Of a stretch of DNA of 20,000 bases, positions 1 through 13,634 are shown piece by piece. Position numbers and translations under genes: made by a program. The notes beneath the pieces are model-generated. The model saw only the letters and a program-made list of their open reading frames with translations. It ran no database searches and was not told the origin of the DNA. Source of the stretch: Perkinsus olseni. Its lineage: Eukaryota. Location: positions 55,828 to 75,827 of the forward strand of contig JABANN010000092.1 of the NCBI GenBank assembly GCA_013115125.1, read 5' to 3'. Within the stretch, counting starts at the first letter, position 1, and each line of letters begins with the position of its first letter.

Positions 1-577
1 GGGATGACGGTGACACTCAAATGGACGATACTTCATAAGATGCACAATTCATTCGGCTTCTTCATGATGAGCTCGCGTTCTTACCAGTGGCTAATAATAC
101 ACGATCGGAGGCCCAGTAAGCGATCTATCCTCTCCCAGTCGACCCAGCGCAGCGTTGCAACGGTTTCCCGTGACGGGAATCCCGTCGGACTCCAGGTCAA
201 CTGTGGAAGTGATGTGCCGCTCGCCACCTGGGCGGTGTGATCGCAGAATTTCTCTCGAATGCTTCTGCTCGCCGAAGCGCTACTGCGTCTCGCAGTTTGC
301 GCCTCCTGTGATGTTCATACGGACTTCGGGTCGCGAAGTGTTATCAGCTCGCAAACAATGCCCAACAGCCCATACGCATTGGAGCGTCGTCCTTATGGAT
401 CTGCATACCCCTAGCTCACTAGCGTTTCGAACCTTAGCTCATCACCACATGCCTGCCTAGCTCAACGCCACTGCACTCACCATCGTCTGAACTGCTAGAC
501 GTTAGACTATTAGATTATAGAACTACTATTAGACTAAAAATACGCTCCTGCGAAGTGTCTGGCGGTTTTCGTGCAGG

Positions 578-1312
578 ATGTCCATCCCTAGCGAGTACTT
601 GGCAGTGAATTACCCGCTCACAAAAGGGACAGAATCTGATAATTTTCAAGCTAGCACCTGTGAAACAATACCCCAATACGTGAATATCTACACGAACGAT
701 ATGTCATGCTGGTCAGCTCTGAAAGAGGCCGTCTGTATCTCCTTCACTTCTCGTTATGTTCTACTATGGGTATGCTATGTCCTCATCGTAGCTGGTTACT
801 CCATTGCCACCTATTTCTCACAAGCCCATCCAACTGATGCTATCAACGGTTACATTGTGGCAACGTATTTGGTGGTTGTAATAGTTCTACCCCCGCCGCT
901 CATCGTATACTATTCCTGGCAATTGGAAGATGGTCGTAGGCGGAGAGATGAACGGCGGCGGAAGCGGGAACGAGCTGCGGAGACCTTCTCGACTAAATGG
1001 CGGAGTTGGTTAGATACCCACACCAAGGTGGGGCCCTACGAGAAGGTCATGCTTGAGCGAAACGTCTCACGGTCCTCGGACAACACAGACGGCGATGAAG
1101 CTGAATCTTGTTCAATATGTTTGATTGACTTCGAGGAAGGTGACATACTCCGCAATTTGCCTTGTCAACATGTGTACCATGAAGATTGTTTTAACGAGTG
1201 CTTCTCTGAGCTGCCTCGAGGTAAGCACCACAAGTGTCCTATGTGCCGTGCCCGGATTGGTCCTGAGATTCGTGACCACTTGGACGAGATTGGCAATCCG
1301 ATTTCCGCCTGA
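578..1312 (+). CDS. Transmembrane RING-H2 (C3H2C3) E3 ubiquitin ligase, ATL/RNF-like, intronless
   Basis: C-terminal CSIC..F..GD..R.LPCQHVYHEDC...KCPMCR is a RING-H2 pattern. Two hydrophobic segments (YVLLWVCYVLIVAGYSIATYF; YIVATYLVVVIVLPPPLIVYY) are followed by a basic cluster. Confidence 0.9.
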   Translation: MSIPSEYLAVNYPLTKGTESDNFQASTCETIPQYVNIYTNDMSCWSALKEAVCISFTSRYVLLWVCYVLIVAGYSIATYFSQAHPTDAINGYIVATYLVVVIVLPPPLIVYYSWQLEDGRRRRDERRRKRERAAETFSTKWRSWLDTHTKVGPYEKVMLERNVSRSSDNTDGDEAESCSICLIDFEEGDILRNLPCQHVYHEDCFNECFSELPRGKHHKCPMCRARIGPEIRDHLDEIGNPISA

Positions 1313-2518: not shown

Positions 2519-3058
2519 ATCGCTTTCTCCTCTCCATTTGTCCAGTTTGTTTGGACTGTTTAGACCTCACCTTGTCTGACTCCTTCGAGTCCTGTTGTCC
2601 TGAACAGTACATAGTCTTGTGTTGTTCTTAATGATGCTCACTGGGCATGGTAAGTGCGAGAACGGATATCCCAGGCCGTATGCTTCACATCAGAAACAAT
2701 GTTCCCGGGAAACACTTTCCAGTTCCCTTGAGTGGCGACGCTAGTGCTTAGATCACTAGGGGATATTCAATAAGCTGTAGAACCGCTAGCGTGGAAGTTG
2801 GAGAAAAGATAGCGCCAAGCAGAGGAAGTTCAGCGCCGATGAGAGAAAAATTAGCGCCCGTCCGGAGATTGTTCCGCTCGGGAATTCACCGGCCGACGAG
2901 AGTTTTGGGTATGTGACGTTTTGACTTGGGGTAAATCGTTCGCTTTCAGCATGCGCATAATCGTTGTCGTCGTGAGACGGCATACCGCACGCAAGCGCAT
3001 TCCTTTCTCGTGCTTAGCAGACGTCACCGTTCGGTTCCCTGTAGTGTTGTTTTAATTG

Positions 3059-4933
3059 ATGCGTTTTTCCTCAACTACTGCTGCCCTGGCCGCCGTTTTA
3101 GCAGTGCCCGCGTCGGTGACTTGGGCCTGTACGACAGTGGCTGTTTCGAAAGAGGCATCCAGCACCGGTGTAGCTATGCTGGCTCATTCGGCTGATTGCT
3201 TCATTTGCGATTCTAGGGTTGCTCTGGTGCCTGCTCGCGATCACCAGGAAGGTGAGGAGCATGAAGTTTTTGGTATCAATCAACCTTATCCTAGAGCCTA
3301 TAATAGACGTGCTGCCATCTACCTTCCCCCAGCCGGGAAAAATTTTACCGAGCCTAGTGCTAGAATTCCCGAGGTCCCCCGAACGTACGGTATGTGGGAG
3401 TCCAACTATCCCCTTATGAATGAAGAGGGTCTCACAGTTGGAGAATCCAGTACAAGCTCTAAGGTTCCTGGCGGCTTTGGCGTTGATCTTGCAGACCCTA
3501 AAACTGGTCAATACGGCGAGGCCAAGTTCAGTATTAAGGAGCTCATTCGGGTTGGCTTGGAGAGGTGTACAACTGCTGAGTGCGCCATCAGAGAGATGGG
3601 CGCCACAGCTGAGAAGTACGGCTTCTACCCCGAGTCCGTTGGGGCGGGTGAATCCCTCACCGTAGCGGACACTAAGGGCTCCGCTTGGGTTTTCGACATT
3701 AGCCATGACTCTACTGGTAAGTCCGCTATTTGGGCCGCTCAGAGAGTCCCTGCTGGCCACGTGGCGGCTATTGCTAATCAGTACACCATCAAGGAGATCA
3801 AGGAGGATGAGCCTGATAACTACATGTTCTCTCCCAATGTTAAGTCGGAGGCGCTTAAGCTCGGTTTGTGGGACGGTAAAAGCCCGTTCAGTTTTGTCGG
3901 AGCCTATGGTGTGAACACTGTGAAGCCAAGTTACACTAGCATCAGGTTGTGGGCCATTTTCAACCTAGTGGCACCCAACTCTGGCCTGGAGTTCAACATC
4001 GACCCCTTCGAGCTGCCCTTCTCTGTACCAGCGGAGAAGTCCATCACTCGCGAGGACTTGATGAACATCTTCAGAACTAACTACGAGGACACTCCCTTCG
4101 ACATGACCAACGGTATTCTGGCTGGCGTCTATCATAACCCTTACAGGATCGAAGGGGGCGATGGCCTTACTCAGGTCCCCGGTGAGTTCGCTAGGGGCAT
4201 CTCTATTCCCCGTACAACGTACAGCATGCTCGGTTATCCAGACCCCGCTAACCCGGTTGTCTTCTACGGTACCGATCAGCCCAGCTCCAGTGTTTTCGTG
4301 CCGTTCCTCGCCAAGACTCTGAAGGAGGCTTCCGCCAACGATCTGGAGGGCTCTAAGAAGTTGTATTCTTCCTATTATCAACTTGGTAACAGAGCTGACT
4401 TCAGCACCGCCCGAGATAGTGCTTGGTGGGCTTTCGATTTTGTCTCTAACTGGATGAACATGAACTACCAAAACATGTCTGAGCAATACGTCAAGCCGGC
4501 CATCGCCGAGTGGCAGCCGAAGATGATCGCTGCGGCTGATGCTGCCACCACTACAGAGGCAATGGACGCCCAGAGCTCAGTGGTGAAGGCTTGGTGGGAC
4601 TTGTCTGATAAGCTCGTTGTTCGCTACAATGACGGCTACTACAGCTTCCCTGAGTCTGACCCTGAGAAAGTTTTTTACATGGGTTATCCTGCGGACTACC
4701 TAGCGCAGATTGGCTTCAACAAGGATTATATTTACCCCAAGTACGTCCAAGCAGCTGGAACGCCATTACATGCTGATACTATGGTTGAACGTGTTGGCAT
4801 GTCTTACTGGTCGGTTGCAGTGGCTGTGGTCGTGGCGCTGTTAGTGGGCGTCTTTGCTGGACGTGTGTCTACTAAAAAGCAGCGTTCTGTGGTATCCGAT
4901 ACTCAAAAGAGGTTATTGGCATCAGAACATTAA
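3059..4933 (+). CDS. Peptidase family C69 (dipeptidase A/secernin-like Ntn hydrolase), type I membrane protein, intronless
   Basis: Signal peptide ends ..VTWA, followed by CTT..V...AS..G....AHSAD (N-terminal Cys nucleophile). Family motifs MNE.GL.VGES, GESLTVAD...AW, IWAAQRVP.GHV...AN, SAWWAFDFVSNW. C-terminal TM YWSVAVAVVVALLVGVFAG. ATG at 3059. Confidence 0.92.
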   Translation: MRFSSTTAALAAVLAVPASVTWACTTVAVSKEASSTGVAMLAHSADCFICDSRVALVPARDHQEGEEHEVFGINQPYPRAYNRRAAIYLPPAGKNFTEPSARIPEVPRTYGMWESNYPLMNEEGLTVGESSTSSKVPGGFGVDLADPKTGQYGEAKFSIKELIRVGLERCTTAECAIREMGATAEKYGFYPESVGAGESLTVADTKGSAWVFDISHDSTGKSAIWAAQRVPAGHVAAIANQYTIKEIKEDEPDNYMFSPNVKSEALKLGLWDGKSPFSFVGAYGVNTVKPSYTSIRLWAIFNLVAPNSGLEFNIDPFELPFSVPAEKSITREDLMNIFRTNYEDTPFDMTNGILAGVYHNPYRIEGGDGLTQVPGEFARGISIPRTTYSMLGYPDPANPVVFYGTDQPSSSVFVPFLAKTLKEASANDLEGSKKLYSSYYQLGNRADFSTARDSAWWAFDFVSNWMNMNYQNMSEQYVKPAIAEWQPKMIAAADAATTTEAMDAQSSVVKAWWDLSDKLVVRYNDGYYSFPESDPEKVFYMGYPADYLAQIGFNKDYIYPKYVQAAGTPLHADTMVERVGMSYWSVAVAVVVALLVGVFAGRVSTKKQRSVVSDTQKRLLASEH

Positions 4934-10864: not shown

Positions 10865-12407
10865 ATGCGGCAGCTCATTCTCGACACCGTTGCTGGCCGA
10901 AGAGTCTCTTCCGTCGTGGCCTGCGTCCTCGGCCTGTTGCTACTTGAGTACGTCGTCTGTCGATTCATCCTCGCTAGGGTGTCGTACACTGAGATAGACT
11001 GGAAGGCCTACATGCAGGAGGTAATCATGACGTGGTCATCATCCTTCACTGGCATCTCTGTGGCTCAGGTAGAAGGCTGGGTGGTGGATGGTGATACGAA
11101 CTACTACCATCTCAAGGGGGGCACCGGCCCCTTGGTGTACCCCGCAGCCTTCCTCTACCTCTACGCGGCCCTGAGGTGGATTGCCGGTGGGGACGGCTCA
11201 GACATTGCAGCGGCTCAGCAGGTGCTCCCCGACCACTCTTGTCTCGTCCAGCCAATTTCTGTAGGTTTTCTTCTGGCTCTACCTGGCCACTGTTGCCGTA
11301 GTACTCACGTGCATGGCGTTCGCTGGAAGGAAGAAGTCGATCCCGCTGCTCTACTACGCACTCGTGTGTTTCTCCAGACGGACACACAGTATCTTCCTCC
11401 TGCGCCTTTTCAATGACGCCTGGTAAACCCCCGACCAGCGGCGGTCCTCATGGTGGTAATCTCTCAGGTGCGTGGCCCTAGTCCACCTCTCCGTGCTCCT
11501 GATGGTAGTCCTCGGCTACCGTCGGTTGGGGTGCATAGTGTACAGCTTGGCAGTTGGTGTGAAGATGAATGCCTTCCTCTGGGCTCCGGGGATCTTCGTC
11601 TTTCTGTTGGGACCCGGAATCCCTACTTGGCGGAGATTCTTCTCGACCCTGTGCTTCGTTGCTGTATGGTGCGGCATACCGCAGGTGGGAGGTCTCTCCA
11701 TGTCGACTGGCCAGCCCTGCTGCCCTCAGATCCTCATCGGCCTGCCCTTCCTGACCACCCACCCCATAGCGTACCTTCATAAGTCCTTCGAGCTCTCCCG
11801 AGTGTTCTTCTATAAATGGACTGTCAACTTCAAGTTTTTGCCCGAGGAGGTCTTCGTATCTCCCGAACTTGGCCTTCTCCTGCTCGCCATGACCATCATA
11901 CTGTGGTTGTGGTTCGCCTTCCGCAAATGGCTCCCTTCCTGGGTATCGCAAGACCCTCTGCTGGTACTCTACAGCAGCAACTTCATCGGTGTGGCGATGT
12001 CCCGAACGATACACTATCAGTTTTATTGCTGGTGAGCGAATCGCCATTTCATACTGGCGCCGCCAAGCTTCCTCTCGATGCCCACAGGTATTCGTTCACC
12101 ATACCGTATCTGCTGTGCCGCAGTCAGTGGACGAGGAATGCCAGTATTGATTTCGTCATCAAGATGGCCGTATGGGGCTCGATCGAGTAAGCATGAGATC
12201 TTCCGTCAAGCTACGAGTTGTCCCGCTGACAGATACGCCTACAACGTGCCACCTGCGTCGGAGTGCCGGAGCCTTCCCAAGGGAACCGACTTCTGTGACA
12301 ATCCTGCGACCCCCCTTAGCAGTGCTCTCCTTCAACTCGTTCATGTGGCTCTACTAGTGGGGCTTGCGAGGGCTCAGGTCGGGAAAAAGGGTGCGAAACT
12401 TGAGTAG
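10865..12407 (+). CDS. ALG3: Dol-P-Man:Man5GlcNAc2-PP-Dol alpha-1,3-mannosyltransferase (GT58)
   Basis: Motifs YTEIDWKAYMQEV, G.TGPLVYPA, SRRTHSIFLLRLFND, SLAVGVKMN, FFYKWTVNFKFLPE, SNFIG...SRTIHYQFYCWY. Introns 11021-11068, 11222-11264, 11423-11467, 11685-11729, 12032-12087 and 12187-12232 are all GT-AG and restore the frame. Confidence 0.96.
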
Positions 12408-12517
12408 TTTCTTGAGTACATGTCCTCTTGCGCTGTTATTGCAGTCTGTAGCTCGGGGCTCGGAGCCGATCGGCCTTGTAGTTCAATATTGCTCCACTCT
12501 CTCTTTACTCCTCCTGA

Positions 12518-12766
12518 ATGGCTCACTCAGACGAGCGGCCAACAAGGGTATTAACCCGAGGAAGATTCTCTGTCAGCTTCGATGAGGGCGACTCTTCCTG
12601 TGGCCAAACGGTTGTGCTCTCCAGATCCCAGTGCGGCGGAATACCCTCCCAGTCTCGCCGAGTTGGTCGGTTCGAATGCTGTTGCCTCACCGCTGTCGGC
12701 CGCCGTGTGGGCCGGTTCGAGGTCTACGATGCTCCCTACGAAGCGATTACTCTGCGCCGCTACTAA
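12518..12766 (+). CDS. 82-aa protein with three RFxV/RFxC-type motifs (RGRFSV, RRVGRFEC, RRVGRFEV)
   Basis: ATG start 110 bp after the ALG3 stop. The duplicated RRVGRFE heptapeptide differs only at four synonymous third positions, which supports coding status. Confidence 0.7.
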   Translation: MAHSDERPTRVLTRGRFSVSFDEGDSSCGQTVVLSRSQCGGIPSQSRRVGRFECCCLTAVGRRVGRFEVYDAPYEAITLRRY

Positions 12767-13252
12767 TTTCTCGCTCGTTGCTGCATCATCTTGCAGTTGC
12801 TCACGTTAGTTCCCGTCTCATCACGATATCAGTATCAGTTCCTATTCTCAGCTTCGGTGCCGTTCAGGCATTTGTATAGTATTTTAGTTCGCGTGTTGTC
12901 TCACCTTTAAAGAGAATTTCTGTCGATCCTCTGAATCTTATCACGGCTTCGTCCTCGGTGCTGAAGCGCCGTCGTGTTTTACTGTGAAGCCTCCAAGCCC
13001 TAACTTCTCTTCACCCGTAAGAATTACTGTGTTATATGATGCTGCGAATCATCTTGTCACTTCGCCATCACCTCTAAGCCGTTTCACGCTCAACCCGGGT
13101 TTAGTTGATTACCCGCAGCGGAGCACGATAGACCTAGTCAAGCGGGAACTCCTCCCGAGAATTCGTCGAGAACTGTGTACTCAATGGAGTCGCCGTAAAT
13201 CGCCACTAACCGAATGAACTCTCTCAAGCAGCAGCTAGAAACAGTTGTTACA
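12767..13252. other. Convergent strand-switch region between the plus-strand and minus-strand gene arrays
   Basis: All supported genes to the left are on + and all to the right are on -. Confidence 0.7.
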
Positions 13253-13534
13253 TTATTTGGAGGATAAACGAGCGAAGCTTTCACCGGTAGAAACATCCAT
13301 CTTGAAGTCCAAACCAGCAGGACACACTTGATCAGCTTCAACCTTCTGCCACTCAGTAGTGGGATAGAATGGCCTCTTGCCCGTCGGGATGGCAGCCTTC
13401 TTCCTGGAGGCTTCTTCCCGCTCATCGTCAGTCTCGTCTCGGAAGAGGTAGACTGCAAGGCCGATCGCTGCAGCTACTCCACATACGATAGCGATGCTCC
13501 GACGACGGTCGACCAAGATCTCTGATAGTGTCAT
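13253..13534 (-). CDS. 93-aa membrane-anchored protein with a stand-alone SIL1-N-terminal-like motif
   Basis: TM SIAIVCGVAAAIGLAVYLF. The C-terminal FYPTTEWQKVEADQVCPAGLDFKMDVSTGESFARL fits the F.PT.EWQ.....Q..P.G......TG...A.L motif at the N-terminus of SIL1 (recalled pattern). Confidence 0.8.
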   Translation of the reverse strand: MTLSEILVDRRRSIAIVCGVAAAIGLAVYLFRDETDDEREEASRKKAAIPTGKRPFYPTTEWQKVEADQVCPAGLDFKMDVSTGESFARLSSK

Positions 13535-13634
13535 GATAAACAGGAAGAATCAAGCCTAAGACAAGGTTCACACCTTACGGACCACCACAAGACTACCAAC
13601 ACGACAAGCGTCCTGCAGTTGATGGAAAAGTACA

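Follow-up and report, generated by a model that had tools for sequence, protein, structure and literature searches.

The peptide V-G-R-F-x-V has, in the literature excerpts used here, a single well-described reader, the CCT (PF2-like) domain of OSR1/SPAK/WNK-type kinases, and the sections of PMC12413468 drawn on for this study list it as the ligand best suited to the CCT domain of OSR1/SPAK. The same sections describe a strong preference of OSR1 for Gly at −2, an increase in affinity with branched residues at −3/−4 and a reduction in affinity for the CCT domain upon phosphorylation at +3. They further state that WNKs carry mainly G-R-F-x-V/I and that this pattern is rare in the human proteome (PMC12413468). 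In TSC22D proteins, a variant of the R-aromatic-x-C form, RWTC, acts as a true CCT ligand, and the motifs are clustered in a short conserved stretch and are thought to be multivalent, according to the portion of the preprint considered here (bioRxiv 10.64898/2026.04.15.718729). WNKs are encoded by unicellular protists, and TSC22D arose in Metazoa, as stated in the relevant part of bioRxiv 10.1101/2024.02.13.579840.

Here we analyse a short open reading frame (ORF) in a 20-kb stretch of DNA from Perkinsus, the whole of which is referred to as the window. From the letters of the DNA, the ORF had been predicted to encode a micro-protein made of RFx[V/I]-type docking motifs, serving as a minimal multivalent adaptor or inhibitor of a WNK/OSR1-like kinase module. 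With the RFx[V/I] (Rphi) motifs of WNKs and cation-chloride cotransporters, the micro-protein has in common the R-F-x-V core preceded by Gly (−2) and Val (−3), an arrangement also present in the WNK4 peptide QLVGRFQVTSSKE. The Ser at +3 of its first motif corresponds to the regulatory Thr/Ser of those systems, and the core and the residues beside it are free of Pro. However, whereas the WNK and cotransporter motifs sit in long disordered tails, those of the micro-protein account for a large share of a stand-alone protein of 82 residues; in addition, one of its sites ends in Cys, and the organism that encodes it is an alveolate parasite.

The long TSC22D isoforms, which are metazoan WNK/NRBP adaptors bearing RFRV and RWTC, resemble the micro-protein in clustering several Rphi-type motifs, including R-aromatic-x-C. 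Unlike them, the micro-protein has no TSC22 box or leucine zipper (no Pfam family at E values up to 10), and no sequence likeness to them was found among 1.84 billion representatives. Judged by these features, it is at most a minimal analogue of the TSC22D multi-motif region or of the WNK tails, and not a TSC22D member. The gene itself shares with the spliced-leader small genes of Perkinsus and dinoflagellates an AG acceptor, a short 5′ UTR and a close upstream gene on the same strand. Here, in contrast to those genes, the leader is deduced by analogy and the product is without relatives.

A separate transcript between two neighbouring genes

RNA contigs were taken from four runs (X3, X14, X4 and X1) belonging to four studies. 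Two of the runs are recorded as RNA, and because the introns of an ALG3-like gene are spliced out in all four, all four are RNA. In the RNA contigs of the ALG3-like gene, the introns at 11422–11466, 11682–11726, 12031–12086 and 12187–12232, each bounded by GT..AG and 45–56 nt long, are skipped. The spliced ALG3 frame is open to 12407, and its last exon (12233–12407, + strand), which includes the stop codon at 12405–12407, is present in spliced contigs from four of four runs. The ALG3 contigs run to 12349–12415; they stop at most 8 nt past the stop codon, the furthest at 12415 (in X1), where three unmatched letters follow. These ends suggest a very short 3′ UTR, with the probable trans-splice acceptor of the micro-gene only about 65 nt beyond.

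Further along the window, one contig per run covers 12480 to 13078–13088, in four of four runs, matching that interval letter for letter and without joints inside it, and no sequence variants are seen in these contigs across the four runs. The interval 12480–13088 is an intronless RNA contig of its own, about 610 nt long, with the ALG3 gene on one side and a small convergent gene on the other. The original prediction had left room for the ORF being just ALG3 3′ UTR; the RNA data instead place 12518–12766 on a separately assembled transcript in every run. Positions 12416–12479 have no contig cover in the four runs, and no contig bridges ALG3 and the ORF, missing cover not being counted as evidence. 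Of the 24 listed runs, 20, from 13 studies, contained half or more of the words sampled from 12300–13000. The depth of the micro-gene contigs is 2.5–17 times that of the ALG3 contig of the same run, a quantity unsuited for ranking genes. Three runs follow the genome to 13083–13088. The contig from X1 departs from the window at 13078 and continues with 52 unlike letters, which are neither spliced leader nor poly(A); this divergence could be an alternative 3′ end, a haplotype or an assembly chimera.

In every run, the fit of the micro-gene contig to the genome begins at 12480, at the AG of the genomic ccttgtAG (12480–12481, + strand), and the letters upstream are non-genomic (7 in X3, 5 in X14, 4 in X4 and 6 in X1). 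The meaning of these letters is suggested by the convergent neighbour, whose transcript (13236–13557, − strand; RNA contigs in four of four runs) contains a 93-codon ORF (13534–13253). In X3, X14 and X4, the loose end of the neighbour contigs at 13557 is TGAGCCAAG, and its reverse complement joined to the genomic AG is CTTGGCTCAAG, and this matches PmaSL1 at its 3′ end, as does the CTTGGCTCA plus AG carried by the neighbour at its 5′ end. PmaSL1, the spliced leader of P. marinus, has TCTT where the dinoflagellate leader has TTTT, as described in part of PMC3101222. Because a spliced-leader 3′ end of the Perkinsus type is seen on the convergent neighbour, we read the start of the micro-gene in the same manner, so that 12480–12481 is probably its trans-splice site. 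The contigs themselves are unstranded, and it is this analogy, by which the unmatched letters are taken as spliced leader, that assigns the RNA to the + strand.

Downstream of this putative acceptor, the 5′ UTR (12482–12517, + strand) measures 36 nt and contains no ATG. The first AUG after the start at 12482, which is also the first ATG of 12482–13085, is located at 12518 and opens an 82-codon ORF running from ATG to TAA (12518–12766, + strand, stop included). A 3′ UTR (12767–13088, + strand) completes the transcript, the contigs ending at 13078–13088 with no joints within 12480–13088. The GC content is 0.60 within the ORF and 0.46 over the remaining transcript, the drop occurring at the stop codon. 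The predicted product (MAHSDE...TLRRY) has a mass of 9.2 kDa and a pI of 9.1, and contains 13 Arg and 5 Cys residues. We consider it very likely that the RNA is a + strand, spliced-leader trans-spliced mRNA of an unannotated gene, with its first AUG (12518) starting the frame of an orphan protein of 82 residues.

The repeated RRVGRFE motif and its likeness to CCT ligands

The ORF contains three motifs, all at the positions given in the original prediction and all on the + strand: RGRFSV (motif 1, 12557–12574), RRVGRFEC (motif 2, 12656–12679) and RRVGRFEV (motif 3, 12701–12724). Motif 1 has Ser at +3, motif 2 is immediately followed by CC, and motif 3 shows four synonymous differences from motif 2. 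The two 21-nt units encoding RRVGRFE are 45 nt apart and differ at four bases, at offsets 5, 8, 11 and 20. Each of these is a third codon position and each change is synonymous, which bears out the synonymous-only divergence on which the original prediction had relied. The eighth codon carries two non-synonymous base differences, giving C in one copy and V in the other, and the sequences flanking the two units have no likeness to each other. The G-R codons of motif 1 (gga, aga) are unlike those of motifs 2 and 3, for the same residues. Outside the motifs, no internal repeat was detected in the rest of the chain. Seven residues preserved through four silent changes, in a chain that is otherwise without repeats, are what a short linear docking motif would be expected to leave.

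This pattern was compared with several chance expectations. In simulations, the heptapeptide was unchanged after four random substitutions in the 21-nt unit in 831–1,035 of 200,000 trials (about 0.4–0.5%). When the residues of the micro-protein were shuffled, three or more RFx[V/I/C] motifs arose in 19 of 200,000 shuffles, and an exact repeat of at least seven residues in 4 of 200,000. A scan of the 20-kb window in all six frames, amounting to about 40,000 positions, turned up three GRFx[V/I/C] sites, each of them inside the micro-ORF, and a total of nine RFx[V/I] sites. The RRVGRFE repeat pattern exceeds chance. The DNA motif GGNCGGTTCGA was also considered as a dispersed element and rejected, as it has 3 matches against 1.1 expected, two of them being the ORF's own.

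The R-F-x-[V/I] core of CCT ligands, with no Pro in or beside it, is present in RFSV and RFEV. The core of motif 2 is RFEC rather than RFx[V/I], a variant that resembles the RWTC of TSC22D. Gly occupies −2 in all three motifs and Val occupies −3 in two of the three, so that the flanks, as read from the residues, fit CCT ligands better than the original prediction noted. The prediction was also right, by the literature, in recalling RFx[V/I] as the CCT ligand and in attributing an R-aromatic-x-C motif to TSC22D, where RWTC is the second motif and binds NRBP1.

A candidate mechanism and its alternatives

Binding of the micro-protein to a CCT domain is the single most likely specific mechanism suggested by the motifs, and one that we put forward as tentative. 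The micro-protein would have no enzyme-like fold and would act through its three G-R-F-x-[V/C] strand motifs, each of which could be bound through β-strand addition by the CCT (PF2-like) domain of an OSR1/SPAK/WNK-type kinase. With three sites in 82 residues, several CCT-like domains might be bound at once, and the micro-protein could thereby bridge kinases of the WNK and FRAY classes or compete with the normal partners of these kinases. The role of adaptor or inhibitor for a WNK/OSR1-like module that the original prediction proposed is plausible, given the resemblance of the motifs. Speculatively, the Ser at +3 of motif 1 might allow phospho-regulation and the CCC formed after the core of motif 2 might serve as a lipid anchor. 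Perkinsus is an oyster parasite that lives through large salinity swings. A more elaborate version, which we regard as doubtful, is that an abundant 9-kDa 'motif cassette' bearing GRFSV, GRFEC and GRFEV, possibly tethered to membranes through CCC, scaffolds or damps WNK–FRAY osmosensing as a non-metazoan, independently evolved counterpart of TSC22D.

Possible receptors of this kind are listed for P. marinus. The original prediction presupposed that the proteome has a WNK/OSR1-like module, and the kinome table in Additional file 1 of PMC3239843 contains two WNK_Other and two FRAY_STE20_STE (OSR1-like) entries, classes that were assigned from kinase-domain profiles only. The kinome in question belongs to P. 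marinus ATCC 50983, and the window may come from a different species. In the main text, as far as it was covered here, two P. marinus STE20 kinases are given as MST and PAKA, whereas the table labels none so (PMC3239843). Literature searches combining WNK with Perkinsus, or WNK/OSR1 with Alveolata or stramenopiles, returned nothing useful.

Two explanations would leave the ORF without a protein of its own. The ORF begins 110 nt past the stop codon of ALG3 and shares its strand, as would be expected if it were part of the ALG3 3′ untranslated region, the null attached to the original prediction; genes resolved by trans-splicing usually share a primary transcript, and ALG3 and the micro-gene may do so. 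Against this reading, the contigs start exactly at 12480 in four of four runs and the letters upstream of that point are non-genomic and are not ALG3, and we consider it highly improbable. The RNA might instead be non-coding, or its coding frame might be a different one or lie on the opposite strand, with the ORF and its repeated motif a by-product of local duplication in A-poor sequence. The length of the ORF is marginal by itself, a first-ATG ORF of at least 82 codons being present in 253 of 5,000 dinucleotide shuffles of the transcript, which makes length alone weak evidence; this A-poor region is open in five of its six frames, and no homologue was found in the protein searches. The codon-usage score of the ORF frame, +0.5 bits, falls between the coding and off-frame ranges (in-frame windows, at least 3.9; off-frame windows, at most −2.9; the +1 frame of the ORF, −1.2), as measured with a small, non-cross-validated training set of about 1,200 codons from the window. 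The contigs being unstranded, unmatched letters at 12480 would also be expected from a minus-strand RNA with a poly(A) tail there. These points are opposed by the synonymous-only divergence of the heptapeptide (p about 0.004–0.005), which occurs in the frame set by the first AUG, and by the shift in composition at the stop codon. Moreover, no ORF that opens with ATG and reaches 40 codons exists on the minus strand of 12400–13138, the two remaining + frames have no Pfam match, and the transcript has no match in Rfam and no excess structure on RNA folding (z = +0.36). We judge a non-coding origin, or coding in another frame or strand, improbable.

Two further explanations accept a real micro-protein and give its motifs another function, and we regard each of them as unlikely. 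In one, R-R-V-G-R-F-E is read by a partner other than CCT, such as the docking groove of a MAP kinase, some other module that binds strands, or a basophilic kinase for which the micro-protein would be a substrate or pseudosubstrate; the evidence from the transcript, from coding and from selection on the motif is equal for this reading and for the CCT reading. G-R-F-S-V presumably fits the loose '.R.S' basophilic site, and we take RR-x3-F-x-V to resemble a docking motif of a basic cluster plus a hydrophobic residue. In the MAPK D-motif, the first hydrophobic site is I/L/V/M and not F, and in the RVxF motif of PP1, V and F are separated by one residue, not two; by these consensus patterns neither motif fits strictly, and both specific readings were rejected. 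Entries for CDPK/CAMK, AGC/PKA and ERK1-type MAPK kinases are plentiful in the P. marinus kinome table (PMC3239843, Additional file 1), which would provide such partners; on the other hand, motifs 2 and 3 have no Ser or Thr, and the literature covered here describes only the CCT domain for V-G-R-F-x-V. In the other explanation, the GRFxV units are structural, forming repeated β-strands of a small sheet or a homo-oligomer unrelated to docking. The best single-sequence AlphaFold model has strands at all three motifs (residues 16–20, 53–57 and 63–72), and two HMMER matches, discussed below, align residues 11–50 of the micro-protein to strand-turn-strand repeats. However, the confidence of this model is low (mean pLDDT 55, pTM 0.41; 35–44 for the other four models), and the HMMER scores were built by summing five to six repeats of the targets. 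In addition, structural repeats usually keep a hydrophobic pattern, not seven consecutive identical residues, four of them charged, amid unlike flanks.

Should the CCT mechanism be true, the micro-protein would be without precedent outside animals as a stand-alone multivalent CCT-ligand protein, and would offer a small, tractable handle on salinity sensing in an economically important oyster parasite. If the motif-cassette version holds as well, multivalent Rphi–CCT wiring would not be an animal invention. Should the mechanism fail, the locus would still offer a clear case of purifying selection on a short linear motif in an otherwise unconstrained orphan micro-protein.

Searches for relatives and the other genes of the window

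Searches with the micro-protein returned 0 families from Pfam at E values up to 10 and no relative from the ESM Atlas or from PDB sequences. In a word-index protein search, proteins of 45–144 residues included no relative, and those of 145–2,000 residues included 55 candidates that had words in common with it, none of which gained a score. A metagenome scan gave 575 pattern matches and 0 relatives. In 44 metagenome loci with ALG3 relatives (32–83% identity, none close to Perkinsus), no syntenic orthologue was detected (best tblastn E value 0.037, over 186 kb), and no ORF with two GRFx[V/I/C] motifs was present at these loci. HMMER, run against 1.84 billion representatives, reported two matches with E values of 6e-7 and 7e-4, to a 2,087-residue Tudor-like repeat protein and a 1,547-residue bacterial surface-repeat protein. 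Both were rejected as spurious, because these are long repeat proteins that are aligned six and five times through residues 11–50, a short strand-turn-strand or hairpin-like stretch.

The exact sequence of the micro-protein is absent among about 15 billion proteins. The C69-family protein of the window is present in the same collection, and the micro-gene is therefore unannotated. This agrees with the original prediction, which had expected gene finders to miss the micro-ORF: the protein databases searched do not include it. By its sequence, the micro-gene is probably an unannotated orphan encoding a basic, Cys-containing protein of 82 residues. If the protein is real, the annotation of this genome has missed an expressed gene that is in none of the protein collections searched.

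The 93-codon ORF of the convergent neighbour probably represents another unannotated micro-gene. Its predicted protein has a hydrophobic N-terminal segment; Pfam assigns it to no family, an exact look-up in the protein collection did not retrieve it, and its only match among PDB sequences (E value 1.5) was treated as noise. Near the 5′ end of this gene, further RNA contigs begin at 13623 (in X1) and 13627 (in X3) and continue past the interval that the RNA analysis covered, indicating another transcript. Several other long ORFs of the window have no Pfam family. A RING-finger ORF is located at 533–1312 (+ strand), and the C69-family dipeptidase ORF occupies 3056–4933 (+ strand; Pfam E value 1e-33), its nearest named relatives being from Perkinsus chesapeaki, P. 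marinus and P. olseni.
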